From Candidatus Zixiibacteriota bacterium (GTDB taxonomy: Bacteria > RBG-13-66-14 > B26-G2 > WVWN01): DNA of 64,000 bases. The stretch is taken from contig WVWN01000078.1 in the NCBI GenBank assembly GCA_011773985.1, positions 39,151 to 103,150 of the forward strand, written 5' to 3'. The notes under the pieces were generated by a model. The model had not been told where the DNA came from, searched no databases, and saw only the letters and a program-made list of their open reading frames with translations. Positions 2,113 through 46,379 of the stretch are shown here, one piece after another. The translations under genes were made by a program, and so were the position numbers. Each line of letters opens with the position of its first letter. Position 1 is the first letter of the stretch.

Positions 2113-4116
2113 TTAGTTTTGATGTTGACTGCGCAAAGTCGCGCCGAATTTTGCCGCGAGCATTTTTATCGTCTCTTCCCGGGCGTCGTTGACCTCTTCG
2201 TCGGTCAACGTCCGGTCGTCGGCCTGGTAGCGAATCCGAACGCCCAGGCTTTTTCGCCGCGCGGGGATGCTCTCGCCGGCGAAGACGTCGAAGACGGCGA
2301 CGTCGCGTACGAGGTCGTTCGATTCGCGGATGGCCGCGACGATGTCCGCGCCGGCCTTGTCCTCGTCGAGGACCAACGCCAGGTCGCGGACGACCGAGGG
2401 GAAGCGGGAAATAGGGCGGTAGCGGCGCGCGGTCGCGGTGAGCGCGCGTAGCGGGCTTACGTCGAGTTCGGTTACGTGGGCGGCGCCGAACGGCTCGACG
2501 GCGGCTTGGCGGTAGGCACCTGTCGCCGGGCCGACGCGGAAGTTCGTCCCTTCCCATTCCGTACTCGCGCCGAGGACTCGGCCGAGCGCTTCAAGGGTGC
2601 CCTTGACGAAGAAGAAATTTGCCTCCCCGGGCCGCCGCGACCAGTGGCGGGGTTCGGCTTCGCCCGCGGCGAGGAGGCCGAGGTGGAGATGCTCGGCTAC
2701 GGTACCGCCTTTGTCCGCCGTGAAGACGTTGCCGATTTCGAAAATCAGTACCGACGGCGCGCCGAGGCGGCCGTTGCGCATCGCCACGTCGGCCAGGTTG
2801 GGCCAGAGCGCCACGCGAAGGTGCGAAAACTGGCTTACGGTCGGGTTGGCGACGGCGACGGCTTCGCAGGGGTCCAGGCCGCAGGCGGCGAGTTGCTCCG
2901 GGTTCGTAAAGGTCGGCGTGTATACCTCGGTGAAGCCGGCCGCCGTGAGGACCTCGCGCATTTTCCGCTCGAGTTCCTCGCGCGGGGCGCGGGCGGGAGG
3001 CGGGAGGCGTCCGCCGGGTAGCGTAGCTTCGACGTTATCGTAGCCGTAGGCGCGGGCGATCTCTTCGACTACGTCAATCTCGGAATTTACGTCGCGCCGA
3101 TAGGGGGGCGCGGATATGACGAGGTTTTCCATACGGTCGAGGCCGACGTCGAAGTAGAGGCGCCTGAGAAGGACGGCCATATCCTCGCCTGTTAGGCTCG
3201 TGCCCATAAGCATATTGGCGCGCGCGGGCCTTAGGACAACCGCCGGCCGCGGCCATTCGGTTTGGCCCTTGTCCGCAGGCGGGGCCAGCACCGTTCCCCC
3301 GGCGAGCTCGGCTAAGAGGGCCGCGGCCCGGTTCGCCGCCTCCAGGGTTGCGGTCGGGTCCGTGCCCCGTTCGAACCTGTACGAGGATTCGGTAGATAGG
3401 CCGTAGCGCCGCGCCGTCCGGCGAACGTTGGCCGGGTCGAAGTAGGCACTCTCGATAACGACGGCTTGGGTGGAAGAAGACACCTCGCTGTCTCGGCCGC
3501 CCATGACGCCCGCGAGCGCTACCGGCCCCTCTGCGTCGGCTATGACGAGGTCTTCCGACGATAGCGTTAGTTCCTCGTCGTTAATGAGGACGAGCTTTTC
3601 TCCCGCTCCGGCGCGCCGAATGACGAGTTTGCGCCCCCGGAGTTTGGCCAGATCGAACGCGTGGAGCGGCTGGCCCATTTCCAAGTTGACGAAGTTCGTG
3701 ATGTCGACGACGTTATTTAGTGAGCGAACGCCGACCGCCTCCAGCCGTTGGGCGAGCCATGGCAGCGACGTTCCCACGTCTAGGTTGGTTACGATTCGCG
3801 CCGAGTAACGGGGGCACAAATCCTGGTCGACGAGGTCCACTTCGACGGAAAGTTCCTTGGGTATGTTTACTTCCTTTATGTAGACGGGCGGGAGCGTGAG
3901 CGGCGCAAGCGTGAGGGAAGAGATTTCGCGCGCAAGCCCTATCATGGATAAGCAGTCGCTGCGCACCGGGACCACGTCGACGTCGAAGATTACGTCGTCG
4001 TCGACGCGCGAGAGCAATTCCACCTCGAGGCCGACCATCGTCAGTTGCTCGGCCAACCTGTCGGCGGGGACGGTTGCGGGGCAATAATCGCGGAGCCATT
4101 TTAGGCTGTATTTCAT
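2113..4116 (-). CDS. pheT: phenylalanine--tRNA ligase beta subunit (short form without the N-terminal OB-fold tRNA-binding domain)
   Basis: B1 N-terminus (MKYSLKWLRDY...MVGLEVE), B3/B4 and B5 regions, and a C-terminal anticodon-binding-like domain. 667 aa versus roughly 790 aa typical. The B1 segment runs directly into the B3-like region. Immediately downstream of pheS. Confidence 0.85.
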   Translation of the reverse strand: MKYSLKWLRDYCPATVPADRLAEQLTMVGLEVELLSRVDDDVIFDVDVVPVRSDCLSMIGLAREISSLTLAPLTLPPVYIKEVNIPKELSVEVDLVDQDLCPRYSARIVTNLDVGTSLPWLAQRLEAVGVRSLNNVVDITNFVNLEMGQPLHAFDLAKLRGRKLVIRRAGAGEKLVLINDEELTLSSEDLVIADAEGPVALAGVMGGRDSEVSSSTQAVVIESAYFDPANVRRTARRYGLSTESSYRFERGTDPTATLEAANRAAALLAELAGGTVLAPPADKGQTEWPRPAVVLRPARANMLMGTSLTGEDMAVLLRRLYFDVGLDRMENLVISAPPYRRDVNSEIDVVEEIARAYGYDNVEATLPGGRLPPPARAPREELERKMREVLTAAGFTEVYTPTFTNPEQLAACGLDPCEAVAVANPTVSQFSHLRVALWPNLADVAMRNGRLGAPSVLIFEIGNVFTADKGGTVAEHLHLGLLAAGEAEPRHWSRRPGEANFFFVKGTLEALGRVLGASTEWEGTNFRVGPATGAYRQAAVEPFGAAHVTELDVSPLRALTATARRYRPISRFPSVVRDLALVLDEDKAGADIVAAIRESNDLVRDVAVFDVFAGESIPARRKSLGVRIRYQADDRTLTDEEVNDAREETIKMLAAKFGATLRSQHQN

Positions 4117-4120
4117 CGAT

Positions 4121-5155
4121 TTAAAATTGTTGTAGAAACGCGAAGTCGTTCTCGTAGAAAAGGCGGATGTCGTTGACGCCGTATTTCAGCATGGCGATTC
4201 GTTCGACGCCCATGCCGAACGCGTAGCCGACCCAACGTTCCGGGTCGTAGCCGACGTTGCGGAAGACGCTCGGATGGACCATGCCGGCGCCCGCGATTTC
4301 GAGCCAGCCTTTGCCGCCGCAGGTCGGGCACCCCACGCCGTCGCAGACGGCGCACGATACGTCGACCTCCGCGGAGGGCTCGGTAAAGGGGAAGAAGTGC
4401 GGGCGAAAGCGCATTTTCGTTCCCGGGCCGAAGACGTATTCGGCGAAGGCGGCGAGCGTTCCCTTGAGGTCGCCCAAGGATACGTTGTCGTCAACGAGCA
4501 GGCCCTCTACTTGGTGGAATACGGGGTAGTGGGAGGCGTCCACCGCGTCGGCTCGGTAGCAGCGGCCCGGGACGATTACGCGCAGGGGCGGTTCCTGCGA
4601 TAACATCACGCGTACCTGGACGGGCGACGTGTGGGTGCGAAGGAGCCACTCGTCGTTTATATATAACGTATCCTGAGCATCGCGGCTCGGGTGGTCGGGC
4701 GGGAAGTTTAGCGCGCCGAAGTTATGGAATTCATCTTCGACTTCCGGGCCGTCCGCTATAGAGAAGCCCAAGGCCGTGAAGAACGCGGCTATCTCGTAAT
4801 AGGTCTTGGTAATGGGGTGGAGCGAACCTATCGCCGGCGTGATACCCGGGAGCGTATAATCGATGCGGCCTTTGCCGGCCTCAGCCTTTTTTTCGGCGAA
4901 CTGCCGCTGTATTCGCCCGTAGCGGCCCTCGAGTTCAGCGCGTAACTCGTTGAGCGCTCGGCCCGCCGCGGGCTTTTCCGCTTCCGGGAGCGAGGAAAGG
5001 CTTTTGCTGAGCCGGCTCAGCGCCGATTTCCGGCCGAGGAATTTTACGCGCCACCGCTCCAGCTCTTTTTCGTCGGCGACGGACGCCGCGGCTTCTCCGG
5101 CGGCCTTTTTCAACGCCGTAGTTTCGGCCAACAGTTTTCGCGTCTCGTCCGTCAC
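4121..5155 (-). CDS. pheS: phenylalanine--tRNA ligase alpha subunit
   Basis: Class II aaRS motifs (FPPDHPSRDAQDTLY, HPVFHQVEGL, GYAFGMGVERIAML). The six-frame ORF (412 aa) begins with out-of-frame R-rich overlap. The likely true start is the GTG at 5155..5153, in the GTGA that overlaps the upstream S4 gene's stop, giving about 344 aa beginning (M)TDETRKLLAE. Confidence 0.85.
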   Translation of the reverse strand: MTDETRKLLAETTALKKAAGEAAASVADEKELERWRVKFLGRKSALSRLSKSLSSLPEAEKPAAGRALNELRAELEGRYGRIQRQFAEKKAEAGKGRIDYTLPGITPAIGSLHPITKTYYEIAAFFTALGFSIADGPEVEDEFHNFGALNFPPDHPSRDAQDTLYINDEWLLRTHTSPVQVRVMLSQEPPLRVIVPGRCYRADAVDASHYPVFHQVEGLLVDDNVSLGDLKGTLAAFAEYVFGPGTKMRFRPHFFPFTEPSAEVDVSCAVCDGVGCPTCGGKGWLEIAGAGMVHPSVFRNVGYDPERWVGYAFGMGVERIAMLKYGVNDIRLFYENDFAFLQQF

Positions 5156-5448
5156 TTTAATATATCCGTCCGTTCGTCCGCCAAGACTTCGTATAGCGCG
5201 GGGGCCTGGGCCTTGGGGACCGATTTGGCCGTCGGGACTTCTTCCACCCTTACGACGAGCCGCCGATTCGGTAACGTCACTTCGACGGTTTCGCCTATGC
5301 GGACGTCGTGGGCCGGTTTCACGCTTTTGCCGTCGACCTTGACGTGCCCTGCGTCGCAAATCTCTTTGGCTCGCGTGCGCTGTTTCACCAGCCGCGCGAC
5401 CACCAGGAATTTATCGAGCCGCATCGCCGACGGTTGCGAATATAACAT
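5152..5448 (-). CDS. S4-domain RNA-binding protein (Hsp15/HslR-like)
   Basis: MRLDKFLVVARLVKQRTRAKEICDAGHVKVDGKSVKPAHDVRIGETVEV is the classic S4 alpha-L RNA-binding fold of Hsp15-like proteins. 98 aa. Its stop overlaps the pheS GTG start. Confidence 0.7.
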   Translation of the reverse strand: MLYSQPSAMRLDKFLVVARLVKQRTRAKEICDAGHVKVDGKSVKPAHDVRIGETVEVTLPNRRLVVRVEEVPTAKSVPKAQAPALYEVLADERTDILK

Positions 5449-12963: not shown

Positions 12964-12967
12964 GCGT

Positions 12968-21023: not shown

Positions 21024-22166
21024 TCACGAAACCGCTTTCGTGAATTTAAGGCCCCTGGCCTCCAACGCCGCGACGAATGGCTCCGGCTCGAGCGCTACTT
21101 CTGGCGGGTAAGCGCCGGCTTTTTTTATTACCCCTTGAGCCAACATAGCCGCGGCGACGGCGACCGGGAAGCCGGTCGTCCGTTGCATCGCCGTTAAGGC
21201 GCTCGCGGCGTCGGCGTAGTCGACGAGCTCGTACGTGGCGACCCTATTCTCGCCGCGGGCCTTTCCTGCGGCCCGGCAAAGGACGAGGACGACGTCGTCG
21301 TTGCCCTCGGGCAGGGCGGAGGCGAGCCGTTCGGCGAGCACCTCGTGGGGTCTGCGTCGCACGCCGCCCGCCGAGATTGCTTCGCCGCTCGCGAGGCCGA
21401 GGTCGAAGAGGAGTTTCACTGCGGCGCAGTGGCCCGGGTACCTGATGGTTTTGTAATCCAATTCCCGCACGCGCCCGCGGTACGTATACGGGAGGGTGGA
21501 GGCGCCGCCGGAGGTATGGAACGCTTCTACGCGCCCTACGGGCGGGAAATCGAACTCCTCGACGCCGGTGAGCGGCGGTACGGTCGCGACGTCGCCGTCT
21601 TTCAATATGAGGCACGGCTCGGCGTATTCGTTAATCAAACCTTGTACCGAAAATAGGAGGGCGTAGTTGAGTGGCGGCTGCGGCTCGCGCGGCAGGCCGC
21701 CGATGCGTATGTGTACTTCCCAAACCTCGTCGAAGGATGATATCAACCTTGCCGCAAGAACGTTCGTAATCCCCGGCGCAAGGCCCATATCGGGAATTAT
21801 CGTTACGCCCGCCGCCCGGGCCTCGTCGTCGAGCGCGAGCTCCGCGCGAACGACGTCGGTATTGCCGCCCATGTCGACGAAATGGGAGCCGGCAGCTACG
21901 GCGGCGCGCGCGAGCGTAGGATTATGTCGGTACGGCGTCGCGGCGACGCATACGTCGTGTCCGGCGATGAGTTCTCGGGTGGCCGCTTCGTCGACGGCGT
22001 CGATGGCCGCGGCTCGAGCTAAGCGGCCGCCACGCTTAGCGCAAAGTCTCTGGGCTCGCGCGACGCGTTCGTCGGCGACGGTTATCGCGTCGAAAGTTCG
22101 GTGGGTGACGAAGTCGTATAGAACGGCCTCGGCCATGCGGCCGGCGCCGATTATTACGGCCTTCAT
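21024..22166 (-). CDS. saccharopine dehydrogenase NAD(P)-binding family protein
   Basis: MKAVIIGAGRMAEAV Rossmann start, preceded by AGGAGG 6 nt upstream. Sacchrp_dh-like C-terminal domain. The six-frame ORF includes 21 extra upstream codons. Confidence 0.6.
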   Translation of the reverse strand: MKAVIIGAGRMAEAVLYDFVTHRTFDAITVADERVARAQRLCAKRGGRLARAAAIDAVDEAATRELIAGHDVCVAATPYRHNPTLARAAVAAGSHFVDMGGNTDVVRAELALDDEARAAGVTIIPDMGLAPGITNVLAARLISSFDEVWEVHIRIGGLPREPQPPLNYALLFSVQGLINEYAEPCLILKDGDVATVPPLTGVEEFDFPPVGRVEAFHTSGGASTLPYTYRGRVRELDYKTIRYPGHCAAVKLLFDLGLASGEAISAGGVRRRPHEVLAERLASALPEGNDDVVLVLCRAAGKARGENRVATYELVDYADAASALTAMQRTTGFPVAVAAAMLAQGVIKKAGAYPPEVALEPEPFVAALEARGLKFTKAVS

Positions 22167-22464
22167 TCCTGGCCTCCTGTTAACACCGCAATAATTATCC
22201 GAGTTAAATTTACCAAGCGGCGCTGTCAAGGGTTTGCTTTGTTAATTAAGCCGCCAAGGGCGCTGGAGTTGTAGTCGCTATCGAATCCTCGGGCCGAGGC
22301 CGAGAACAACGATTTTGAGGTCGGCCGAGTACTTACGGGAAAAGCGCCACGGCCGGAGGGCTTATCGCCGCCGCTATGGCCGATCGGGGGACGTGAGTTG
22401 TCGATGTTTTAAATGTGAAGGGGGGCTGGCTCCGAGCCGGCTTTCGACGGGAGGAAATGGGGTA

Positions 22465-23907
22465 TCACTTCCAGTGGCCGCTGATGAACTCCTCGACCTC
22501 TGGAAGGCCCCCTTGGAGGATTAGGTAGCCGTTGGTGGGCTCGCGGTCGGTAATCTCGCCGGCGACGGGGGTGAGCATTATCCTCCTGACCTCGTCAAGG
22601 TCGTCGGTCCGACCGAGGGCCCAACAAAGCTTAACGTACGCGACCTCCGGCAGCATGTTCTGGGCGGGGATGACGCCGAGGCGTTGCATGTCGCGGCCGG
22701 TCTCGTAGACATCCATGTGGACGTAACCCCATAGCGTTTGGACCGTCATATACACAGCGACGCGGGCCTCCTGGGCGCGCTTGAGTGCCGGGTAGCACGG
22801 CTTGTTGACGTGGCCGAGGCCCGTCCCGGCAATGACGATGCCGCGATAGCCCAGGTCGACGAGCGCGTCGAGGATGTCCGGATACATATTCGGGTAATAA
22901 TATATCAACGCCACGCGCTCCTCGAAGGCGGTGTTGAGTACGCATTTGCGGTCGCCGGGGCGGCGCCGGGCGTAATCGTCGCGCAGGGGCGCGATACGCT
23001 CGCGGTTTACGGTCGCGAGCGGGACGTCGCCGATTGTGCGGAACGTTGAGCGGTAGGAGGAGTGCATCTTGCGGACGCGGGTGCCGCGGTGGAGGAGGCC
23101 GTACAGGTCCGAGGTGGGCCCGAACATACACACCATAACCTCGGCTATATCCGATTCCGCCGCGGCTTTAGCGGCGTGGATGAGGTTGAGCGCGGCGTCG
23201 GAGGAGGGGCGGTCGCTGGAGCGCTGGCTCCCGACGAGGACGACGGGGACGGGCGATTTCTGGACCATAAACGAGAGGACCGCGGCGGTGTGGTGCATGG
23301 TATCGGTGCCGTGGCCCACGACGATGCCGTCGACGCCCTTTTCGATCTCGCGGGCGATGGCCTTCGCGAGCACTACGTACTCTTGGGCCCCCATATTTTC
23401 AGAGAAGACGCCAAAGAGCTTCTCGGTTTCTAGATTACAGATGTCGGCGAGTTCCGGGACCGCGCCGTACAACTCGCCGGGCGTGAAGGCCGGAATGACG
23501 GCGCCGGTGCGGTAGTCGAGGCGGGAGGCGATGGTGCCGCCGGTTCCCAGGAGTTTGACGAACGGCCGGCCTTCCTTGAAGGGGAATTCCTTTTCCGGTA
23601 TCTTGTAGTGGGCGACGGCGTACCCGGTCTCTTTTATATCGGTTATAGCGTCGACGGCCACGCCGACATTATAACCGGAGGCGATCTTGATGACTATGTG
23701 CTGGTCGTCGCCGGACTCGGCGCGGGGGAGAACCCGTCCCTCGAAGCGGCCCCGGCTCGAGTCGATGAGGACATCGCTCCAGACTTTGACGCCGAATTTT
23801 TTTAGGCATTCGAGGGCGGCACCGCGGTAACCTTTGTGGAGATCTTGTGCCGGGGCCTTTGGAGCCTTTTTCCGTACCGTATTTTTATTTCGGGGCGGGC
23901 GAGCCAT
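22465..23907 (-). CDS. gatD: glutamyl-tRNA(Gln) amidotransferase subunit D, archaeal-type (asparaginase family)
   Basis: GatD-specific N-terminal domain (EGRVLPRAESGDDQHIVIKIASGYNVGVAVDAITDI), followed by the asparaginase fold LLGTGGTIAS...GIVVGHGTDTM. 480 aa. Confidence 0.65.
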   Translation of the reverse strand: MARPPRNKNTVRKKAPKAPAQDLHKGYRGAALECLKKFGVKVWSDVLIDSSRGRFEGRVLPRAESGDDQHIVIKIASGYNVGVAVDAITDIKETGYAVAHYKIPEKEFPFKEGRPFVKLLGTGGTIASRLDYRTGAVIPAFTPGELYGAVPELADICNLETEKLFGVFSENMGAQEYVVLAKAIAREIEKGVDGIVVGHGTDTMHHTAAVLSFMVQKSPVPVVLVGSQRSSDRPSSDAALNLIHAAKAAAESDIAEVMVCMFGPTSDLYGLLHRGTRVRKMHSSYRSTFRTIGDVPLATVNRERIAPLRDDYARRRPGDRKCVLNTAFEERVALIYYYPNMYPDILDALVDLGYRGIVIAGTGLGHVNKPCYPALKRAQEARVAVYMTVQTLWGYVHMDVYETGRDMQRLGVIPAQNMLPEVAYVKLCWALGRTDDLDEVRRIMLTPVAGEITDREPTNGYLILQGGLPEVEEFISGHWK

Positions 23908-24000
23908 CGCGGAATTATAAATTAATATTGAGCTGTAATGTTAATTTTTTTATAATATCGGAGAGGCTGAAGGTTTTGCGAAGCGGCGAGGTGTATCGTA

Positions 24001-25428
24001 TTGTCGGTACTCCGTAGATTTTACGAGCGGGAATCGTTCTGCGACCTCTTCCGAGCTTTCGTAATGAACCGGCGGGTCCGCGCCGCGGCGGTCCCGTTCA
24101 TCGAGAAGTTGTTGTATAAGAAGGTGGTGGAGGAAGATACTATCGGCCGGTCCCCGGGAATCCAACGCGATAAATACTATATGATGGTGGCCATCCTCCA
24201 TAGCGTAGACCGCGGCTTGAGGCGGGGAGCGTTTTCCAAACACGTAGTAAACCGCCTGTTCAAGGTTTTCGTCGAGAACGTTCTTTTAAACGAAAGTCCT
24301 CGCCGCGTAAAGGAGAAGACCGGCCGGTGGCCGCCGTTCTTCGTAACTATAAGCCCGACGCAACGTTGTAATTTGAATTGCCAGGGTTGTTATGCGGCGT
24401 CGCGCCCGGGCGCAGTGGCGCAGCTCGAGTACGACGTCGTGGCCGAGGTGCTCTCGCAAAAGCGCCGCTTGTGGGGTTCCTTCTTCACGGTGATTTCCGG
24501 GGGCGAGCCTTTTTTATGGAACGATGGCGGGAAGGGCATATTCGACCTCGCCGCGGATTTCCCGGACGAGTTCTTTATTCTGTTCACCAACGGCACCTTA
24601 ATCGGGGCCGACGTTGCGCGGCGGCTTGAGGAGCTCGGGAATATAACGCCTGCCATTTCACTCGAGGGGTTCGCAGCCGAAACGGACCGCCGCCGCGGCC
24701 GGGGCGTTTTCGATAAAATTTTGGCGGCCTTCGAGGAGCTGCGCGGCGCCGGCGTGCCTTTCGGAATTTCGGTTACGGTCATCCGCGACAACGCGGAAGT
24801 CGTTATGGGGCGTGAGTTCTCCGATTTCTTTTTCCGGGAGCAGGGGGCGATATACGGTTGGATTTTCCAGTATATGCCGATCGGCCGGGCGCCTGCGCTG
24901 GAGTTGATGGTGACGCCGGAACAACGGCTGAGGATGTACCGCCGCTTGGTTGAGATGATAAGGGACGAACGGTTGCTCGCGGTCGATTTCTGGAACTCCG
25001 GGCCGGTTACGAACGGTTGCATGGCCGCCGGGCGGCCGTTCGGATACCTCCATATAGACTGGCACGGCAACGCCACGCCCTGCGTGTTCGTGCCGTACAC
25101 GGCCGGGAACGTGCGCGATATATTCGCGCGGGGCGGCGACCTCAACGAGGTTCTCGAGTCGGGTTTGTTCGCGGATATCCGGCGATGGCAGAACGAATAC
25201 GGGTACGACCACGGCTGCGGGAGGAGCGGCGATTGGATCGCGCCGTGCGTGAACCGCGACCACTACCGAGTCCTGAGGGAGGCTATCGAGCTTAGCGGGG
25301 CGAAGCCCATCGACGATTCGGCCGCCGCGGCGCTCGCGGACGAAGAATACGCGCGGGGCCTCGCCGCTTACGGCGACGACTTCCGCACCCTCGCCGACGA
25401 CGTCTGGGAGCGGGAGTATCTAAGTTAA
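24001..25428 (+). CDS. radical SAM enzyme with an N-terminal helical extension and a Cys-rich C-terminal (SPASM-like) region
   Basis: ISPTQRCNLNCQGCYAAS (CX3CX2C) about 115 aa from the N-terminus, ISGGEPFL, and C-terminal Cys residues (NGCMAAGRPF...GNATPCVF...HGCGRSGDWIAPC). Paralog at 41133..42563. Confidence 0.7.
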   Translation: MSVLRRFYERESFCDLFRAFVMNRRVRAAAVPFIEKLLYKKVVEEDTIGRSPGIQRDKYYMMVAILHSVDRGLRRGAFSKHVVNRLFKVFVENVLLNESPRRVKEKTGRWPPFFVTISPTQRCNLNCQGCYAASRPGAVAQLEYDVVAEVLSQKRRLWGSFFTVISGGEPFLWNDGGKGIFDLAADFPDEFFILFTNGTLIGADVARRLEELGNITPAISLEGFAAETDRRRGRGVFDKILAAFEELRGAGVPFGISVTVIRDNAEVVMGREFSDFFFREQGAIYGWIFQYMPIGRAPALELMVTPEQRLRMYRRLVEMIRDERLLAVDFWNSGPVTNGCMAAGRPFGYLHIDWHGNATPCVFVPYTAGNVRDIFARGGDLNEVLESGLFADIRRWQNEYGYDHGCGRSGDWIAPCVNRDHYRVLREAIELSGAKPIDDSAAAALADEEYARGLAAYGDDFRTLADDVWEREYLS

Positions 25429-25446
25429 CGCGGCTGGTACGGGGTT

Positions 25447-26286
25447 CTAAGGCGGGGGCGATAACCGATATTTCGTGAGTAGGACGAAGAGCGCCGTCGT
25501 GGGGTCGGGGTGCGATTCGTCGCGGGCGACGTAAGGCCAGCCGCCGTCGTCGTTTTGTGTTTCCGCTAAGAGTTTAAGGCATTCTTGAACGTCGGCGTCG
25601 GGCGCGCGCCGGCCGAGGGCGAGGAGGGCCGGCAGCGGGTTTTCGACGGGATTACGCCACCGGCCTTTCTGCCGTGCGAATGCCCCCGGCAGGCCGGCGA
25701 AGACGTCGTGATTGGGAGCTACGCCCGCGGCGAGTAGGCCTGAGACCACGGCGGGAATCGCCCACAAATCGGTTCGGTCGGGGTAGTCTTTGGCAATTTG
25801 GCCCGGCCAGCCCCCGTCCTTGTTCCGCGTGCGCAATAGAAGGGAGCGCGCGCGATTTGTATTTTCGTTGAAGCCGCCCACCGCCGAAAGCGCCACTATC
25901 GCGTCGCCCGTTATCCACGTTACCGAATTTCGCGCGGAAAACCATTCCCACTCGGGTTTGAGGTTGGCGGCTAACGCGGGATTCTCGGAGAAGCCGCCGT
26001 CGGGTCGCTGCATCGCGGCAAGCCAGCTCGCCCCTTTCTTCGCGGCTTCCGCCGCCTCCGCCCGCGCGAGCAATTCCACGCGCCGGGCCGTTACCGGGAC
26101 GCTGCCTAGTTCGCTTTTAGCGCCGGTGCCTACGAACGAACCGTCGTCATTTTGGACCGCGGTTACTTCGGCGGCGAGGTCGGCCTTCGCTCGCGGTACT
26201 GCGCCGCCGGCTAAGCTGAGCTCGAGGTAATGATGGGCCTTCCCGGCCGCGACGACGTACGCCGCCGCCCTCGCAAGCGATTCCAT
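25447..26286 (-). CDS. prenyltransferase/squalene-oxidase repeat (terpene-cyclase-like alpha/alpha toroid) mini-protein
   Basis: Four QW-like repeats (QNDDGSF, QRPDGGF, RNKDGGWPGQ, QNDDGGWPY) in 279 aa. Starts 18 nt downstream of the gatE stop on the same strand. Confidence 0.55.
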   Translation of the reverse strand: MESLARAAAYVVAAGKAHHYLELSLAGGAVPRAKADLAAEVTAVQNDDGSFVGTGAKSELGSVPVTARRVELLARAEAAEAAKKGASWLAAMQRPDGGFSENPALAANLKPEWEWFSARNSVTWITGDAIVALSAVGGFNENTNRARSLLLRTRNKDGGWPGQIAKDYPDRTDLWAIPAVVSGLLAAGVAPNHDVFAGLPGAFARQKGRWRNPVENPLPALLALGRRAPDADVQECLKLLAETQNDDGGWPYVARDESHPDPTTALFVLLTKYRLSPPP

Positions 26287-26304
26287 CTTCCCTTCCTCTC
26301 CAGG

Positions 26305-28254
26305 TTATCGTTCTTTCGCCTTGGGCAGGAATTTCTCGGTGACGATTTCGGCGAGTTCGGCGCCGGGGACGAGCCCCCGCAACTCGGCCATGAGCTCGCC
26401 CATGGCGTAGCGTTTCATCGCCGCGGGGCCGTTGGGGAACCGGCGCACCTTGATCTTACGTTCCACTTTCTTCGCTATTTCGGGAAGCCGTGCTGTTACC
26501 TTGCCGCGGTGCGTCAGGTCGTTGAGGATGCTGCGCAGCGGCGCGCCGTGGGACAGATACGCCTCGAGCGCCGCGGTTAAGGCCTCCCGCGAAATCTTTC
26601 CCCGGCCGTAAAGGCTGAACGTCCTTTCGACGTCGCTTGGGGCGAGGTCGTCTACCGCCCAGCCGCGGCGGCGCCATCCTTTCATCTTGTGCGTTAACGT
26701 CGTCGCTGCGAACTTCGGCTCGACGCCGTGTTCTTCGACGACTTTTTCGAACGTTTCGGCCCAGCGGGACGCGGCGAGGGGCGCGACGCAATCCTCCGGG
26801 ACACCCCACTCGCGGTAGCGGCCTTCGCGGGTCCATATAGGCTCGGGGAGTTCGCTCGCCAACGCCGCGACCCGCTCTTCGGGAATTTTAATCGGCGGCC
26901 GGTCCGTATCGGGGTACATGCGGTCCGGCCCGGGCAGGATTCGTTCGAAGCCCGTCGTGCCGTCGGCTAGGGCCTGGCGCGTCTCCGACGGTACTCCTAT
27001 CGTCGCCTCGTGGGCGCGGAGGACGATCTCGTCGGCGCCCAGGCGCGCGTCCTCGGCCGGGCCCCAAACCAGGACGACGACGTCGCGGTCCCGCGCCTTG
27101 AGTTTACGGCGGAGGCGGCGCCACGTCTCGTCGCCGAGTTGGCGCGAGGAGGTTTCGTCGTCGAAGACGTTTGGCAGGCGATCGAGGCACGCGACTACGC
27201 GTACGCGATCCGAAATTTCGTCGACGAAGCTTTTGGTCTCCTGGGTACGCGCGCCGAGGATGCCGCGAAAACCGCGGAGCGCCACCGCGTACGCGTGGCC
27301 GCCTTCTTTCGCGGCCGCGGCGGGCAGATTTTGCCTGTCGCCCGTTGCCGCCGCGGATACGTCTACCACGACGGCGCGAAACGAGCTCTCCGTTATCCCC
27401 CGGCGTTTGAGTTCCGCGTGAATGTCGAGGAGCGCTCGTTGGCGCATGGCCTCGTTGTGGACGAGGCGGGGTATGGCTTTTAAGCGGGGGACGCCCTTGA
27501 TCTCCGCGCGGGTACCGCCCGCGACGGATACGTTTACGTCCTCGCGCGCGGCGCCGATGCCGGTGCGGACGAGGCCGGTGGAACGGGTGAGCCGCCGTAA
27601 GAGCTGCCCGACCTCGGCGATTTCGGCCGGCGTCTCCATATCCGGGTGCGTTACCGTCTCGACGAGCGGCATCCCCAGGCGGTCGGTAAGATATATCCGG
27701 TAGTGCCCTTCGTCGCCCACCTCGCGGCAGGAATCCTCCTCGACGGCGAGCTGTTTTATGCCGATGCGCCTTCCCCGGAAGGGGACATAACCCTCGACGC
27801 CGACGATCGCGGTCCGTTGGAACCCGGTGGGGATGGACCCGTCCAAGTATTGTTTGCGGATGATGTGCATCTCGGAGACGATGTTGCAATTCAACAACAG
27901 CGCGATTTTCAAGCCAATGTCGATCGATTCCTCGTCCATATCGAAGGGCGGCGTATCGTCCATCTCGTACGTGCAGCACGTCTCCTGCTTGGTCCGGTAG
28001 ATGATGTTTTTACGGGTCTTAAACTCCATGAGGGCGGTGCCGTCGTACTCGCCCATTTCGGACAAAGTGGGCCGCATGTGGCGAAGTATTTCGGCGTCGT
28101 AATCGTAGGAATAAATGCCCGCCGGGCAACGGCAGAAGAGCTTCGAAGTGGTCAGGAGTTGTTGGTGGATTTCGAGGCCGCCGCGGAAACCCATCGCGCG
28201 GTAATCGTCGTCCGTAAGGGAACCGAAGGGTCGTACGTTGGTTATGGTGGGCAT
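26305..28254 (-). CDS. gatE: glutamyl-tRNA(Gln) amidotransferase subunit E, archaeal-type (GatB/GatE family)
   Basis: GLEIHQQLLTTSKLFCRCP signature. 649 aa, the GatE size with an AspRS-like insertion (GatB is about 480 aa). C-terminal GatB/YqeY-like helical tail. Confidence 0.65.
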   Translation of the reverse strand: MPTITNVRPFGSLTDDDYRAMGFRGGLEIHQQLLTTSKLFCRCPAGIYSYDYDAEILRHMRPTLSEMGEYDGTALMEFKTRKNIIYRTKQETCCTYEMDDTPPFDMDEESIDIGLKIALLLNCNIVSEMHIIRKQYLDGSIPTGFQRTAIVGVEGYVPFRGRRIGIKQLAVEEDSCREVGDEGHYRIYLTDRLGMPLVETVTHPDMETPAEIAEVGQLLRRLTRSTGLVRTGIGAAREDVNVSVAGGTRAEIKGVPRLKAIPRLVHNEAMRQRALLDIHAELKRRGITESSFRAVVVDVSAAATGDRQNLPAAAAKEGGHAYAVALRGFRGILGARTQETKSFVDEISDRVRVVACLDRLPNVFDDETSSRQLGDETWRRLRRKLKARDRDVVVLVWGPAEDARLGADEIVLRAHEATIGVPSETRQALADGTTGFERILPGPDRMYPDTDRPPIKIPEERVAALASELPEPIWTREGRYREWGVPEDCVAPLAASRWAETFEKVVEEHGVEPKFAATTLTHKMKGWRRRGWAVDDLAPSDVERTFSLYGRGKISREALTAALEAYLSHGAPLRSILNDLTHRGKVTARLPEIAKKVERKIKVRRFPNGPAAMKRYAMGELMAELRGLVPGAELAEIVTEKFLPKAKER

Positions 28255-28345: not shown

Positions 28346-28373
28346 TTTCAAAAATCCGGCCGCCGAGGGCCGG
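28346..28373 (-). terminator. rho-independent terminator (minus strand) after the 28406..28999 gene
   Basis: On the minus strand, CCGGCCCTCGGCGGCCGG hairpin followed by ATTTTTGAAA. Confidence 0.45.
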
Positions 28374-28405: not shown

Positions 28406-28999
28406 TTAGGGACGGCCGCGTTGGCGAAAATCTTGGAAGTAATATTCCCGCGAAGGCGTTAATTCTTCTGGCTTAAGGCGATACTTTTTGGGGGCGTTCA
28501 AGATTCGGCGGTGGACTTCGGCTATGAGGTCGTTGCGTATTTCTTTTTGTTCGGTGAGCACGTCGACGATGGGCGCTTTCGACTCGGCCTTTCCCTCCAA
28601 TACGTCGACGATGTGGGCATCCGCGGCGAGGGAGCTTACGGTGGCGTCGATAATTTCGAGCCGGAGTTGCTCGCCCCACTTCGTATCGGGAACGTAGGCT
28701 GTACAGAAGTCGACCGTGGCTTTGGCCGCGGGTACGGTTTGCCGGTTGATGGCGTTTTCCAACCCCGCGGGGTCGGCGGCAAAGCCCCCCGCTTCGACCA
28801 GCTCGTCCAGATCTTGGCGCGCTTTTACGAATTCTTCGAAGAGAGTTGCGCACTCCGCGAGCCACACCGCGGTGGGCACGGTCCCGTCCTTTTTAGGTTT
28901 TATGACGCCCTTGGGCAGGGGGCCGCTTTCGCCCAGGGCGAGGCCGCTTAGGGCGGCGAGGATCGAAACCGTTGCTAAACCGTGAACTAACCTACTCAT
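28406..28999 (-). CDS. secreted hypothetical protein
   Basis: MSRLVHGLATVSILAALSGLALG signal peptide. 197 aa, helical. No recognisable motif. Confidence 0.4.
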   Translation of the reverse strand: MSRLVHGLATVSILAALSGLALGESGPLPKGVIKPKKDGTVPTAVWLAECATLFEEFVKARQDLDELVEAGGFAADPAGLENAINRQTVPAAKATVDFCTAYVPDTKWGEQLRLEIIDATVSSLAADAHIVDVLEGKAESKAPIVDVLTEQKEIRNDLIAEVHRRILNAPKKYRLKPEELTPSREYYFQDFRQRGRP

Positions 29000-29007
29000 C
29001 GCCGAGA

Positions 29008-30234
29008 CTACCCTCCCGACGGGCCGCCTTGTCGCGCCGCTTCCTCCGCGGCTTTGTTGAGAATCGCTTTTGCGGTCGGGTTACCCGGGTCGAGCATCAG
29101 TATGTCCGCGCAGTGTTTGGTGGCGGCTTTGAAATCGCCGGCTTCGAGCAGGTACCGCGCGAGGTGCAGGCGCGCCGGTATATTTTGGCGGTCGATCTTA
29201 CTTAAGGTGGTATTGAAAATCTTCCTCGCGAAGATCTCGTCGGACTCCAGCCCGCGGGCGGTGTAAGCGAGCGCGACCATGTTGTTGACCGACGAAAGGT
29301 AGTCGCGCAGGTAGTTTTGTTCCGGTTTACTGAATTGCAGGGCGAAGTTCATGATGGCGGACCCCAAACGGATTATCCGATCCGCGGCGTCGCGCGATTC
29401 GTCCTTACCCGTTACGTCCATCAACCAGAACCTCATGACCAGCAAGTATAGCCAAAAAAGGTCGCGCCGTAGGTGCGCGGTTTGGACGAGTTCCAGCACG
29501 CGGTCGATGGTTCGTTTTTTAAGCGCTTCCGGGAGGAAGACGAAGACTTCGTGGTCGAGGAACGACACAACTTCGAAAATAGCTATGGTTATTGCCGAGT
29601 CCTTCAGCTTTTGTTGCCTATCGGAGGAGAACTTGATCGCGAAGTTCTTGTGCTGCTCGAGTATCGAACGCACGTTCCCGCTTAAGAACAACTTGTAGAT
29701 CTGTCCCGCCCGCGAGAAACCCTCGACTTTTTTGCCGATATTTATGGCGAAACCGTCGATACGGGGGATGGTGTCGCGGCTGCGTAAGCGCCAGTCTTTG
29801 GTTTCGCGAATTACTTTGCCCGTGTGTATACCTATGCCGACATCGAAGACCAGGCCCTTGTCCTCGAACGCGGCGTGGTTGAAGTCCGACGTGAGCCAGA
29901 CCAGTTTCATCTTTAGGGCGAGTTGCAACGCCGAGCGGACGTCGTAGTCCGTATTTTCGCAGTAGAAAAATACCCGGACTTCGTCGCCCTCGATATCCCA
30001 TTCGTAGTTTTCGCCCGTCCGGATGTCTACGCCGCGGCCGGACATGCTTTCGCGCGGGGTGTAGCGATATCGCAGGACGTGGTCTACGATGACGTCGAAC
30101 ATCAGCGACTGGTATTCGGTAAGCATCCGGTTATAGGTAGCGGCGTCCTGCACCCCCGAGATCCCGGTGGAGTTTATGATGTCCACGAAGAGGACCGTGG
30201 CCCGGATTTCGTCGCTTTTCGCTTCTTCCGCCAT
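29008..30234 (-). CDS. class III adenylate/guanylate cyclase domain protein with a C-terminal helical repeat (TPR-like) region
   Basis: ATVLFVDIINSTGIS (FxDIxxFT-type metal-binding Asp) and GDEVRVFFY second Asp. About 200 aa of alpha-helical repeat follow, with a TPR-like end (ARYLLEAGDFKAATKHCADILMLDPGNPTA). Confidence 0.6.
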   Translation of the reverse strand: MAEEAKSDEIRATVLFVDIINSTGISGVQDAATYNRMLTEYQSLMFDVIVDHVLRYRYTPRESMSGRGVDIRTGENYEWDIEGDEVRVFFYCENTDYDVRSALQLALKMKLVWLTSDFNHAAFEDKGLVFDVGIGIHTGKVIRETKDWRLRSRDTIPRIDGFAINIGKKVEGFSRAGQIYKLFLSGNVRSILEQHKNFAIKFSSDRQQKLKDSAITIAIFEVVSFLDHEVFVFLPEALKKRTIDRVLELVQTAHLRRDLFWLYLLVMRFWLMDVTGKDESRDAADRIIRLGSAIMNFALQFSKPEQNYLRDYLSSVNNMVALAYTARGLESDEIFARKIFNTTLSKIDRQNIPARLHLARYLLEAGDFKAATKHCADILMLDPGNPTAKAILNKAAEEAARQGGPSGG

Positions 30235-30240
30235 CCCTCT

Positions 30241-30879
30241 TTAAATTTGAAGGCTTTTACGTTTCTCGCGGATGAAGTCTTCCAAGTAGGACACACGCTC
30301 CGCGAGGCTGGCGTCTATGACTTCGCGGAAGTGTTGCTCGTCGGAGACGAACGCGTCGAACTCCTCTTTTAGGTGCCGCAGTAACTTTTCGATCTCTTCG
30401 CGGCTGTTCTCCAAGACCTTCACTCGCTCGTGAAGCACGGCCGCCTTTTTATCGAATACCTGTTTAGACTCGTTCAGTGTAGCCGCCATCGTCTCGAGTT
30501 GCGCGTTGAATTTGGATATAACGCTGTTAACGTTTTCTCGCAACGCCTCGTTTTCGCGGGAGCTCTTTTTGTTGGCCGCGGTTACCTGCTCGCGCATGGT
30601 GCGGGTTAAACGTTCTATGTCCGCGAACGATTTATCCAAGGCCCCGCGGTGTTTTACCGCCTGTTCCTCCTGGGCGGCCAGCCGCCGCTCCACCGTTGCC
30701 ACGATGCCGCCTAGCTTGACGCGGACCGTCAAGTATAAAAACGCCGTGGCACCCGCGGCGAACGCGGCCACTATTAGCACCGGGTAAGGTTCGACGAGGT
30801 AAAACGCCGCTAGCGCTACGACGGCCGCCAAGAGGAGGACCACGACGAAGAGCGCGTCAAAAATACGAAAAGCCATCAC
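30241..30879 (-). CDS. membrane-anchored coiled-coil protein
   Basis: Two N-terminal transmembrane helices (FDALFVVVLLLAAVVALAAFYLV..., LIVAAFAAGATAFLYL) followed by about 150 aa of coiled coil. Ends 6 nt before the cyclase gene's start on the same strand. Confidence 0.45.
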   Translation of the reverse strand: MMAFRIFDALFVVVLLLAAVVALAAFYLVEPYPVLIVAAFAAGATAFLYLTVRVKLGGIVATVERRLAAQEEQAVKHRGALDKSFADIERLTRTMREQVTAANKKSSRENEALRENVNSVISKFNAQLETMAATLNESKQVFDKKAAVLHERVKVLENSREEIEKLLRHLKEEFDAFVSDEQHFREVIDASLAERVSYLEDFIREKRKSLQI

Positions 30880-44459: not shown

Positions 44460-46379
44460 TCAGCGCACAAGGACTACGGTCCTCGTTGACGGGGGGGCGG
44501 TTTTGCCGACGCGAAGGCACGCGACGTATACGCCGCTCGCTACCGGCGCGCCCCCGGCGTCGGTTCCGTCCCACTCCGCGACGTATTTTCCGGGCGTTTT
44601 GGCCTCGTTGACGAGGTAGCGGATTAGTTTGCCCGATATATCGTAAACGGCGATCGAGGTCGCGGGCGCGTCGCCGTTAACGGGCGCCACTTCGTACGCG
44701 ATATTGACTTGGGTTACGAACGGGTTGGGGTAGCACCGGGTTATGGCACTCCTGGGTTTGGCCGCGCCGCCCACAGCCCGGACCGCTTTCGGGCCGTAGG
44801 TCCGGACGCGCCCCGAGGAAAGGCGCTCCTCGAGTTTGTAATAGTAGATCGTGCCGTCGTTTACCTTATCGTCGCGGTAGCTGTAGGAGGCCGTCGGTTG
44901 TTCTTCGACGTACGCTATTTCGTAATAGATGGTACTTCCGCTCACGTGATCCCTTATTCCTTTAAAGATAGCCCAGCCCGATCGCTCCGGGGTAGGTTCG
45001 GCTTTCCACCGGATAATAATGGCGCCGCCCTGTACGGCCAGGGTGAAAGGTTGGCGGTCGGCGGCCGGCGCCAGGTATTTACCCGTACGCCAGTGGTTGC
45101 CGCCGAACATGGGCCAGGGGTTGGCGGACGGCTCGTACGCCGCCTCGGTGCGGATCGCCTCGAGGCATCCATTTTGGGCGCCCACGACGACATCCAGGAA
45201 GCCGTCTTCGTCCACGTCCGTTGCCGCGGGCGTGGAGGTAATGCCGGTGCCCGACAGTTTGACGGGGAACCCGCCGGTCGGAGCCCCGTTTTTTTCATAG
45301 GATAAAAGCGTACCGTCGTACGTCACGAGTAATATTTCGGGGAGGCCGTCGCCGTCTGCGTCGACCATCAGGGGGGCCGCGGCTACGGTTTGCCTTAATT
45401 GTTTCGGGAAACCTGGCCTTGATATGCCATCGGCGTCGAAGACGCCGATCGTCGCCCCTTCGATATATCTGGCCCCGCCCACGAAAACCAACGCCAGTTT
45501 GCCCCGGCCGTCTACGTCGCCCACGGCCGCGGGAACGGTTATGGGTTTAGCCCCAAATGATTGCGGCCACCCCGGGCGGAAGGTGCCGTCGGCGTCGACT
45601 ACGTAAGCCAGGCCCGTGGTAGTACCCGCCAGGACCTCGGTTCGCCCGTCGCCGTCTACGTCGGCCAGTACGGGCGCCCCGGCGACCTGTCCGTCGAGCG
45701 CGACGGGCCAACCGGTGGCTTCCGCCCCCGACGTATTGAAGGCGTAAATTTTACGATCTGAGGCTACCACGACTTCCGGCTGTTGGTCGCCGTCGAGGTC
45801 GCCCACCGCGGGGAAGCCGTGTGAAGGCTCTTCGAGCGTAGCGGGCCAACCGCCGATGGCCGTTCCGTTACCGTGGAAGCCGTAGAGGGCGGCGCCAGCG
45901 GTGGCGAATACTTCCAGGCCGCGGTAGTTCGTAAAGTCCTGGACCGCGACCCCGCCCGAGCCCGCGGCGCCGAGTTCCTTCGGCCACCCCGGCACGGGTA
46001 TCCCGTCGTGGCCGAAGGCGTAAAGTTTGCCGTCGCCGGAGGCGAATAGCACCTCCAATTTTCTATCGCCGTCGAGGTCCGCGAGGGCGGGCGAGGAACA
46101 CTCGCCGTGCTGTGCGCCAGTCGAGGCGGGAAAGCCCGAAAGCGGCCTCCCGTTGGCGTCGAGCAAGTAGAGTTTTCCGTCCCAAGTGGCGATCGCGATT
46201 TCGCGACGGCCGTCGCCGTCAACGTCGGCGACCGCGGGCGACGAGTCGTGGCACGGGCCGACGTTGACGGGCCAGCCCTGGATGTATTGCGGCTCGGCGG
46301 CCGTGGCGAATGGCGCGGCGACCGCCAAGCCCACCGCGCTTAAAATTGTCATATTTGTTATATGTTTAGATCTTCCCAC
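44460..46379 (-). CDS. FG-GAP/VCBS repeat beta-propeller protein with a T9SS C-terminal sorting domain (Por_Secre_tail type)
   Basis: Signal peptide. At least 7 FG-GAP repeats (ADVDGDGRREIAIATWDGKLYLLDANG, GDLDGDQQPEVVVASDRKIYAF...). C-terminus CYPNPFVTQVNIAYEV...IAVYDISGKLIRYLVNE...GKYVAEWDGTDAGGAPVASGVYVACLRVG...VVLVR matches the T9SS CTD consensus. Confidence 0.75.
   Translation of the reverse strand: MGRSKHITNMTILSAVGLAVAAPFATAAEPQYIQGWPVNVGPCHDSSPAVADVDGDGRREIAIATWDGKLYLLDANGRPLSGFPASTGAQHGECSSPALADLDGDRKLEVLFASGDGKLYAFGHDGIPVPGWPKELGAAGSGGVAVQDFTNYRGLEVFATAGAALYGFHGNGTAIGGWPATLEEPSHGFPAVGDLDGDQQPEVVVASDRKIYAFNTSGAEATGWPVALDGQVAGAPVLADVDGDGRTEVLAGTTTGLAYVVDADGTFRPGWPQSFGAKPITVPAAVGDVDGRGKLALVFVGGARYIEGATIGVFDADGISRPGFPKQLRQTVAAAPLMVDADGDGLPEILLVTYDGTLLSYEKNGAPTGGFPVKLSGTGITSTPAATDVDEDGFLDVVVGAQNGCLEAIRTEAAYEPSANPWPMFGGNHWRTGKYLAPAADRQPFTLAVQGGAIIIRWKAEPTPERSGWAIFKGIRDHVSGSTIYYEIAYVEEQPTASYSYRDDKVNDGTIYYYKLEERLSSGRVRTYGPKAVRAVGGAAKPRSAITRCYPNPFVTQVNIAYEVAPVNGDAPATSIAVYDISGKLIRYLVNEAKTPGKYVAEWDGTDAGGAPVASGVYVACLRVGKTAPPSTRTVVLVR

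Follow-up and report, generated by a model that had tools for sequence, protein, structure and literature searches.

The stretch of DNA analysed here comprises 64,000 nucleotides of contig WVWN01000078.1 from the Candidatus Zixiibacteriota bacterium assembly GCA_011773985.1 (hereafter, the window), and encodes GatD and GatE, the two subunits of the Glu-tRNA(Gln) amidotransferase GatDE. Reviews, including those of 2021 and 2022, refer to GatDE as an archaeal signature enzyme found only in the Archaea. The genes in the window belong to a bacterial host, and homologues are carried by a closed bacterial chromosome and by megabase-scale bacterial contigs. The statement on distribution is thus contradicted, not the assignment of the enzyme family. 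The best overall explanation, and one we consider probable from the sequence comparisons, is that this bacterium encodes a catalytically competent GatDE, which would derive from an ancient archaeal transfer, is specified by a split gene pair and may cooperate with bacterial partners in a hybrid pathway. The family assignment is not a new annotation, as the automated GenBank annotation of the 152 kb contig (locus tags GTN49_) already names the two proteins GatD (NIT37039.1) and GatE (NIT37042.1). A literature search, with most subscription journals outside its scope, recovered no paper reporting or discussing bacterial GatDE. The two genes are as follows:

22465..23907, minus strand: gatD, encoding the glutaminase (asparaginase-fold) subunit of GatDE, 480 amino acids, assigned from hidden Markov models (HMMs), domains and motifs
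26305..28254, minus strand: gatE, encoding the kinase/amidotransferase (tRNA-binding) subunit of GatDE, 649 amino acids, assigned from HMMs, domains and alignment

Identity of the subunits and of their host

Family membership was called with the equivalog cut-offs of NCBIfam HMMs and the domain cut-offs of Pfam. The translated gatD product exceeds the thresholds of the GatD equivalogs TIGR02153 (gatD_arch; Bitscore: 510.5; cut-off: 324) and NF003217 (Bitscore: 507.3; cut-off: 310), and contains a GatD_N domain (PF18195; residues 44-92; Bitscore: 46.3; cut-off: 25.7) ahead of the Asparaginase (PF00710; residues 117-305) and Asparaginase_C (PF17763; residues 331-444) domains. The original prediction, made from the sequence without database searches, had proposed a GatD-specific N-terminal domain preceding an asparaginase fold; the string it quoted, GDDQHIVIKIASGYNVGV, falls inside the PF18195 domain, and the domain and equivalog matches bear this proposal out, hence the protein is not a plain type I asparaginase. 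It shares with the type I L-asparaginase AnsA the complete N- and C-terminal asparaginase domains and the catalytic residues, and passes the corresponding subfamily model (TIGR00519; Bitscore: 383.7; cut-off: 260.5), but is distinguished by the additional GatD_N domain, much higher GatD-equivalog scores and a gatE partner gene. By comparison, solved asparaginases score approximately 143 bits and solved GatD approximately 403 bits. In a tree rooted on two solved type I asparaginases the protein is placed within the GatD radiation and not among the free asparaginases.

All catalytic motifs of GatD are intact (TGGT, HGTDT, SQRSSDRPSSDA and RKMH), with the segments GTGGTIAS, GHGTDTM and RVRKMHSS agreeing with the solved archaeal GatD proteins at the catalytic residues. 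This motif test is discriminating, since the motifs have been lost in the related locus L017 (a Logan contig of SRR27730043; GatD P0306/P0168) and partly in the GatD representative P0156. A further feature of the protein is a C-terminal tail of approximately 24 residues (REPxxGYLIxQGGxPExxxF; residues 457-480; window 22465-22539), which is retained in all GatD proteins of the bacterial clade described below, including those that are catalytically dead. The tail is partly recognizable in two other representatives, P0160 and P0161, and is missing from the two solved euryarchaeal GatD proteins.

The gatE product likewise passes the GatE equivalogs NF003107 (Bitscore: 520.3; cut-off: 456) and TIGR00134 (gatE_arch; Bitscore: 453.8; cut-off: 319.55), while all six of the GatB models tried remain below their cut-offs, the best of them reaching 152.1 bits (cut-off: 338) and matching only residues ~102-284. 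The 649 amino acid protein is therefore GatE and not GatB, as had been predicted, and the signature quoted in support, GLEIHQQL...KLFCRCP, is found at residues 26-44. The match to PF02934 spans residues 26-462, although the model has only 277 positions, which suggests a GatE-type insertion that is absent in GatB. Residues 285-400 are collinear with the GatE proteins of P. abyssi and M. thermautotrophicus, such that the insertion is of the right size and in the right place. No match to PF02938 (GAD) was obtained within the insertion at E<=1e-3, though this domain was found in some other bacterial GatE proteins. The YqeY-like tail domain is recognized at residues 501-641 (PF02637; Bitscore: 31.4; cut-off: 27). 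The Mg2+ ligands H30, E172 and E199 align without gaps to H15, E157 and E184 of the M. thermautotrophicus protein, and the REDVNVS motif is retained. The possibility that the two open reading frames (ORFs) encode an ordinary bacterial AnsA and GatB is ruled out by the HMM cut-offs and the domain architecture.

Taken together, the window pair shares with archaeal GatDE (2D6F and 1ZQ1) its subunits, the GatD_N domain with asparaginase fold, the GatE cradle with YqeY-like tail, the catalytic and Mg2+ residues and, at the place of the AspRS-like domain of GatE, an insertion of similar size in which PF02938 is not detected, as well as collinear alignment and scores above the equivalog thresholds. 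GatD is approximately 49% identical to, and collinear over its full length with, the M. thermautotrophicus (2D6F) and P. abyssi (1ZQ1) proteins, and GatE aligns end to end with its counterparts at 33-34% identity. The window system differs from these in its bacterial host, in these identities, in the separation of its genes by two unrelated genes, in the conserved C-terminal tail of GatD and, as judged from related bacteria, in its probable substrate (U1-A72 tRNA-Gln) and partner (a bacterial-type glutamyl-tRNA synthetase, GluRS). With the bacterial GatCAB it shares its overall chemistry, in which phosphorylation depends on the tRNA and tunnelled ammonia then serves for the amidation, and, going by the related genomes, a likely tRNA identity set of U1-A72 and a shorter tRNA-Gln D-loop. 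GatE and GatB are paralogues with common cradle and YqeY-like domains (2008 review in Nucleic Acids Research, NAR). In contrast to GatCAB, the glutaminase is the asparaginase-fold GatD rather than the amidase-fold GatA, there is no GatC, and GatE, with 649 residues and an insertion, scores far below the cut-offs of the HMMs for GatB, which has ~480 amino acids and lacks the insertion.

The bacterial nature of the host is evident from the following genes of the window:

2113..5359, minus strand: pheT and pheS of bacterial type (PheT: B3_4, B5, tRNA_synthFbeta and FDX-ACB; PheS: Phe_tRNA-synt_N, an N-terminal coiled coil, and tRNA-synt_2d)
44460..46379, minus strand: FG-GAP repeat protein with a C-terminal type IX secretion system (T9SS) type A sorting domain (TIGR04183, FG-GAP_3 and FlgD_ig)

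The T9SS sorting domain occupies residues 550-626 of the latter protein (TIGR04183; Bitscore: 24.5; cut-off: 23), and further genes of bacterial context encode Crp, a major facilitator superfamily transporter and a DHQ synthase. A ZapA (PF05164) and a ZapB-like gene adjoin pheST in L019, another assembly that covers this region. Of the bacterial neighbours listed in the original prediction, zapA, pheST and the T9SS domain are thus upheld by domain matches; the outer-membrane beta-barrel was not confirmed, with only a weak Omp28-like match at 14387-14947.

The GC content is even along the window, and the third-position values of gatD (GC3: 0.80) and gatE (0.79) lie within the range of their neighbours (0.64-0.86). 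Three independent assemblies from other samples, L001, L017 and L019, reproduce the region. L001 carries the order hyp408-hyp197-gatE-SHC-like-gatD, where SHC-like denotes a gene of the squalene-hopene-cyclase (terpene-cyclase) repeat family. L017 holds the entire block of upstream hypothetical genes, gatE, the SHC-like gene, a radical S-adenosylmethionine (SAM) gene, gatD and genes for saccharopine dehydrogenase, aconitase, Iso_dh and Crp, and L019 covers the pheST-zapA side. An archaeal or chimeric contig had been named as what would overturn the prediction; the contig is neither, its composition being homogeneous, its markers bacterial and its junctions the same in the three assemblies. This excludes both chimerism and an archaeal source for the contig.

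Distribution and phylogeny of bacterial GatDE

The best 120 database matches to the window GatE show 52-80% identity, and all of those with a named organism are bacterial, the names being Aminicenantes, Kapaibacterium, Phycisphaerae, Chloroflexota and 'bacterium'. A scan of one genome per species returned 14 gatE loci, all of them in bacterial metagenome-assembled genomes. These belong to Zixibacteria, among them a closed chromosome of 3.74 Mb (CP070742.1; locus L014), and to Ignavibacteria, Melioribacteraceae, Rhodothermaceae and Phycisphaerae. Bacterial contigs measuring 232 kb, 2.67 Mb and 4.3 Mb hold additional copies, in the vicinity of tmRNA, ECF sigma factor, PEP-CTERM and LpxR genes.

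In eight loci (L002, L003, L004, L009, L011, L012, L016 and L023) gatE is followed directly by gatD. The SHC-like insertion is restricted to the subclade of the window (window, L001 and L017), with the radical SAM gene found only in the window and L017, which makes the adjacent gatE-gatD arrangement ancestral and the split arrangement derived.

A distinct subclade of GatE proteins, here termed type B, is formed by L005, L008, L010, L013 and L014 with 100% bootstrap support. Its members carry the motif RLSMPLLEVITA, are sister to the remaining bacterial GatE proteins and share 43-45% identity with the window GatE. No gatD was found downstream of the type B gatE within 10 kb in L010, L013 and L014 or within approximately 4 kb in L005, L008 itself being only 2.2 kb long. 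Other variations on the gene pair were also observed. In P0158, a protein of 943 amino acids encoded on a 12.8 kb Logan contig, the cradle and insertion domains of GatE are naturally fused to a complete and catalytically intact GatD; it lacks the YqeY-like tail and belongs to the bacterial clade. In L022, on the 4.3 Mb contig, the gatD downstream of gatE (11833-13318) appears truncated to 266 amino acids and overlaps an antisense ORF call, which may reflect either a long-read frameshift or real decay. Genes of nitrogen and amide metabolism recur beside bacterial gatE-gatD (L003:7966-9861, L009:15215-16720, L017:9524-10657 and L022:824-1954). They include, directly upstream of gatE-gatD in Rhodothermaceae, a gene for an aspartate ammonia-lyase that is extended at its N-terminus by a cNMP-binding-like region, as well as a GlnA-like gene in L009 and AsnA genes in L017 and L022.

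The relationships of GatD were analysed in a sample drawn from 1.84 billion representatives of 50%-identity clusters, all of which were searched; 474 of them matched at E<=1e-30, and the 150 best matches were taken. A neighbour-joining (NJ) tree of 130 full-length sequences, based on corrected identity distances, unites the window protein, the labelled bacterial loci and P0156, P0157, P0158 and P0168 in one clade (99/100 bootstrap replicates), and the bacterial GatE proteins are likewise monophyletic (100/100 NJ bootstrap replicates). Outside the bacterial GatD clade, every sequence that is labelled or was checked by its context is archaeal (Sigynarchaeota, Nitrososphaerota, Thermococcus, Bathyarchaeia and Nanoarchaeota), with two further loci having archaeal informational genes as neighbours. 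When the tree was rooted with the two solved type I asparaginases (Thermococcales) as outgroup, the bacterial clade was monophyletic in 59 of 60 replicates and nested inside archaeal GatD in all 60, at a depth of 4-16 nodes; in none was it sister to all archaeal GatD. Its usual sister group, in most of the rooted replicates, consists of P0162, P0190, P0161 and P0160. Among these, P0161 is labelled Sigynarchaeota (L020) and a member of the P0190 cluster lies amid fibrillarin, Nop5 and L37ae genes (L021).

These Asgard-like loci resemble most bacterial loci in their adjacent gatE-then-gatD order, in addition to forming part of the sister group of bacterial GatD and, in P0160 and P0161, possessing the partly similar tail. 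Their identity to the window proteins ranges from approximately 49% (P0161) to 53% (P0190) for GatD and from 30 to 33% for GatE. L021 differs from the window in its archaeal context and in its GatD, which is fused to an archease domain: this protein (P0314; L021:8001-9821; 606 amino acids) ends in PF01951, and its gene overlaps the end of a gatE encoding 715 amino acids. The 100/100 split that joins bacterial and Asgard-like GatE is uninformative, as with three groups it is the same split as euryarchaeal monophyly. Being about equally distant from all archaeal groups sampled, GatE does not identify a donor. A direction of transfer from archaea to bacteria is well supported by the GatD trees, and an Asgard-like donor is only suggested.

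Sequences from different phyla are interleaved within the bacterial clade, Chloroflexota grouping with Kapaibacteria and Rhodothermaceae with Melioribacteraceae, for instance, and GatD proteins of different phyla are 68-73% identical. The horizontal acquisition put forward in the original prediction is consequently supported by the phylogeny, but not as an isolated event, the locus being one member of a multi-phylum bacterial clade. Because the clade spans several phyla, the archaeal transfer would be ancient and followed by spread among bacteria. We suggest that the gatE-gatD pair passed once from an archaeon to a bacterium, was subsequently disseminated among several bacterial phyla, and in the lineage of the window was split when a terpene-cyclase-repeat gene and, on the other strand, a radical SAM gene were inserted into it.

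Function, pathway partners and alternative explanations

Archaeal GatDE is an alpha2-beta2 tetramer in which GatD, a glutaminase of the asparaginase type, uses a Thr nucleophile and a Thr-Lys-Asp triad, GatE holds Mg2+ through His15, Glu157 and Glu184 (M. thermautotrophicus numbering), mutation of which abolishes activity, and a 40 Å ammonia tunnel joins the two active sites (2008 NAR review). Since all the catalytic and Mg2+-binding residues are kept, the window pair is predicted to be catalytically competent, and it most likely performs the canonical Gln-tRNA reaction. By analogy with the archaeal enzyme, a GatD dimer would bind two GatE subunits, which would engage Glu-tRNA(Gln) through their cradle, insertion and YqeY-like tail domains. 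GatE would phosphorylate the gamma-carboxyl group of the tRNA-bound glutamate using ATP and Mg2+, GatD would hydrolyse glutamine or asparagine at its asparaginase-type Thr/Thr-Asp-Lys site, and the ammonia released would travel through an internal tunnel to GatE, where the activated intermediate would be amidated to Gln-tRNA(Gln). The chemistry of the enzyme is thus expected to be ordinary.

Its probable partners can be discerned in related genomes. In the Zixibacteria loci L013 (6927-16257) and L014 (6801-15105), genes for tRNA-Glu(CUC), GatE, GltX and tRNA-Gln(CUG) are located within approximately 9 kb of each other. The gltX products match the bacterial model TIGR00464 (Bitscore: ~545; cut-off: 290) and fail the archaeal model TIGR00463 (Bitscore: ~150; cut-off: 402). 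Genes for tRNA-Gln or tRNA-Glu also occur near gatE in L002 (9765-9841), L005 (4943-5016) and L006 (4889-4963), and in the approximately 180 kb of sequence flanking gatE in the 14 loci, 7/10 tRNA genes are specific for Glu or Gln. The tRNA-Gln(CUG) genes beside gatE in L005, L013 and L014 specify U1-A72 and G73, which is the bacterial type rather than the archaeal A1-U72, with a D-loop of 7 nt compared to 8 nt in the neighbouring tRNA-Glu (as counted by eye). The tRNA-Glu(CUC) genes near gatE in L006 (4889-4963), L013 (6927-6999) and L014 (6801-6875) show a G1·U72 wobble pair and an A73 discriminator; the tRNA-Glu of E. coli has G1-C72 and G73.

On the basis of these relatives, a bacterial-type and presumably non-discriminating GluRS would act upstream of GatDE, which would in turn act on a bacterial-type tRNA-Gln with U1-A72. 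As related Zixibacteria pair gatE with a bacterial-type gltX and a U1-A72 tRNA-Gln, the route is most likely a hybrid that combines an archaeal-type amidotransferase with a GluRS and a tRNA-Gln of bacterial type, and the archaeal-style Gln-tRNA route suggested earlier is unlikely to hold for the pathway as a whole. A hybrid pathway would require changed recognition of the first base pair by GatE, which may be linked to the long stem branch of GatE in the tree.

Several observations weigh against this interpretation, the most serious of which concern catalysis. In L017 (3671-9413), where synteny with the window extends to both flanks, neither subunit retains its catalytic and Mg2+-binding residues, with TGGT changed to FGGA, HGTDT to HARAT and RKMH to RQLH in GatD, and GLEIH to AVVIR, EED to GED and DVNVS to DIRLA in GatE. 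The two genes are still full-length ORFs, sharing 35% and 43% identity with the window compared to 57-73% for their neighbours, and may encode a pseudoenzyme pair. The AsnA gene of this locus lies directly downstream of the dead gatD. Furthermore, P0156, the best-scoring GatD representative (62% identity), has degenerate catalytic motifs. On these sequences, GatDE catalysis appears to be dispensable in some genomes of the window subclade, where there would therefore be another Gln-tRNA route and possibly a non-catalytic role for the proteins; for this reason the canonical function is held to be no more than probable for the window organism itself. Regarding the partners, neither gltX, glnS, gatCAB nor tRNA-Gln was found in the 64-kb window and 10 kb beyond one of its ends, tRNA-Ala(CGC) being the only tRNA gene in the window, and the linkage with gltX and tRNA-Gln elsewhere is mainly a property of type B GatE rather than of the window type. 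Archaeal GatDE recognizes tRNA-Gln by A1-U72 and the D-loop (2008 NAR review), so that the bacterial U1-A72 constitutes a mismatch. As to origin, GatE is 30-35% identical to every archaeal group sampled and shows no special affinity to the Asgard-like proteins (30-33%); the archaeal GatE sampling is thin, the profile search having supplied only Thermococcales and Methanobacteriales, and the trees are distance trees with limited outgroups.

These observations lend themselves to another explanation, in which the proteins are true GatDE homologues that do not, or do not mainly, serve Gln-tRNA synthesis in this organism, GatCAB or glutaminyl-tRNA synthetase supplying Gln-tRNA instead. GatDE would then be redundant, in the process of being lost, or recruited to another role, such as tRNA binding or regulation, or a tRNA-dependent amidation together with the products of the radical SAM and SHC-like genes. 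The L017 subunits, catalytically dead yet full-length and far more diverged than their neighbours, accord with it, as do the degenerate motifs of P0156, the AsnA gene beside the dead gatD and the fact that each of the three lineages of the subclade has kept the SHC-like gene between the two gat genes. The copies in the window are, however, intact, and their identity to those of L001 (78% for GatE; 91% for GatD) speaks for an active enzyme kept under purifying selection. Neither intervening gene behaves as a conserved partner, the radical SAM gene being on the opposite strand and absent from L001 and the SHC-like gene being absent outside the subclade, and the association of gatE with gltX and tRNA-Gln elsewhere in the bacterial clade fits the canonical role. 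A non-canonical role is thus regarded as unlikely for the window pair, though it is the most serious competitor of a functional GatDE in a hybrid pathway.

Explanations that deny the archaeal transfer or the genes themselves fare worse. Vertical descent would place GatDE in the last universal ancestor, with retention in a few bacterial phyla and loss elsewhere, and such an ancestral GatDE has reportedly been proposed by Sheppard and Soll. The depth and monophyly of the bacterial clade, its extension over several phyla and the near-equal distance of its GatE from each archaeal group sampled are compatible with this scenario. Bacterial GatD is, however, never sister to all archaeal GatD but nested beside the Asgard-like proteins, with which the clade has the C-terminal tail and the gatE-gatD order in common; the intermixing of phyla fits transfer among bacteria, and 68-73% GatD identity across phyla is too high for a split of the age of the domains. 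Vertical descent is consequently considered very improbable. An artefact, in the form of an archaeal, chimeric or mis-binned contig or of plain AnsA and GatB ORFs, is conceivable in principle because the source is a metagenome-assembled genome, in which mis-assembly may occur, but its probability is negligible given the identical gene order over both junctions in three independent assemblies from other samples, the homogeneous composition, the homologues on a closed bacterial chromosome and megabase-scale bacterial contigs, and a protein pair that passes the GatE models, fails those for GatB and includes GatD_N. An ancient transfer of a functional GatDE, followed by its integration with bacterial partners, is therefore preferred. 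A bolder version of this proposal, to which we give only tentative credence, holds that a bacterial GatDE branch comprising at least six phylum-level lineages has replaced GatCAB in Gln-tRNA(Gln) synthesis and been re-tuned to U1-A72 tRNA-Gln and bacterial GluRS, in some genomes from within a cluster of gatE, gltX, tRNA-Gln and tRNA-Glu genes, and that in at least one sublineage near the window both subunits have become catalytically dead and been kept for a new role that is not enzymatic.

The large and coherent bacterial GatDE clade represents a widespread exception to the textbook statement that the enzyme is confined to archaea, and bears on which amidotransferases the last universal ancestor possessed. 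It also bears on why archaea keep two amidotransferases and bacteria one, a question described as open in the 2008 NAR review, and on the co-evolution of tRNA identity elements with the enzymes that read them, in that an archaeal-type enzyme here apparently meets a bacterial tRNA-Gln and GluRS. Natural test cases within the clade range from intact enzymes through the GatE-GatD fusion to the pair in which both subunits are dead.

Intervening and flanking genes

The arrangement around the two genes comprises the following features:

21024..22229, minus strand: saccharopine-dehydrogenase-family gene downstream of gatD (PF16653 and PF03435)
23908..24000, no strand: divergent intergenic region of 93 bp between gatD and the radical SAM gene (from ORF coordinates)
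24001..25428, plus strand: radical SAM/SPASM-domain enzyme, 475 amino acids (PF04055; Bitscore: 73.7; weak SPASM match)
25447..26286, minus strand: squalene-hopene-cyclase/prenyltransferase-repeat (alpha/alpha-toroid) protein, function unassigned, 279 amino acids (PF13243)
28356..28373, minus strand: terminator-like GC hairpin and T-run between the upstream gene and gatE (CCGGCC-CTCGGC-GGCCGG followed by ATTTTT)
28406..30879, minus strand: three conserved upstream genes encoding 197, 408 and 212 amino acids, with no confident family match

ORF coordinates and domains agree with the earlier description of gatD and gatE as non-adjacent, with a radical SAM and a terpene-cyclase-repeat gene between them. 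The SHC-like protein matches PF13243 (Bitscore: 37; cut-off: 26.1) and falls far below the cut-offs of the true cyclase models. Its gene follows gatE at a distance of 18 bp in the same orientation, and the two are probably co-transcribed. Orthologs recur at this position in L001 (71% identity) and L017 (59%) and are absent from the other bacterial gatE-gatD pairs, identifying the gene as a lineage-specific insertion. The radical SAM protein reaches no NCBIfam equivalog cut-off; its gene is found in the same position in L017 (69% identity) and is missing in L001. The idea that these two genes work together with GatDE, perhaps in a natural-product pathway that depends on tRNA, is not supported: L001, the closest relative, lacks the radical SAM gene, which moreover runs opposite to gatE and gatD in the window, and neither gene occurs in the other bacterial gatE-gatD pairs. 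A radical SAM/SPASM paralogue of 476 amino acids, approximately 35% identical to the L017 ortholog of the radical SAM protein, is encoded elsewhere in the window (41133-42563, plus strand) and is followed by a tetratricopeptide repeat protein gene.

In the split layout gatD needs its own promoter. A promoter-like site is present in the divergent region (23928-23956, plus strand; TTGAGC-17-TATAAT; 10/12 matches), but the count of such sites in the region, four compared to 2.7 in shuffled sequence, is not above expectation. Similarly, the 17 terminator-like sites found do not exceed the shuffled control (14.6), and the hairpin at 28356-28373 is only a hint that gatE starts its own transcription unit. 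As neither count is above its control, the operon boundaries are drawn from spacing alone. Upstream, the order hyp408-hyp197-gatE is conserved in L001 (79% and 85% identity, respectively) and L017 (73% and 57%). The saccharopine-dehydrogenase-family gene downstream of gatD, a conserved flank that ties the locus to bacterial synteny, is 60% identical in L017, where it is followed, as in the window, by genes for aconitase subunits, nitroreductase/ferredoxin, Iso_dh and Crp.

The window also encodes further metabolic genes. The regions 5637-12963 and 16901-21013 contain genes for an ATP-grasp_2 protein, a CoA-ligase protein and a short citrate-synthase C-terminal-domain protein, which together look like a citryl-CoA synthetase/lyase set, as well as two aconitase-family large/small subunit pairs and an isocitrate/isopropylmalate dehydrogenase. 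These genes may constitute a reductive tricarboxylic acid cycle or related carbon module. Towards the other end of the window, a serine-palmitoyltransferase-like gene (59967-61190, plus strand; NF047600; Bitscore: 532.7, below the cut-off of 640) adjoins a gene for an HpnA-like epimerase/reductase of the short-chain dehydrogenase/reductase family (58949-59962, plus strand), a pairing which hints at sphingolipid-type lipid synthesis.

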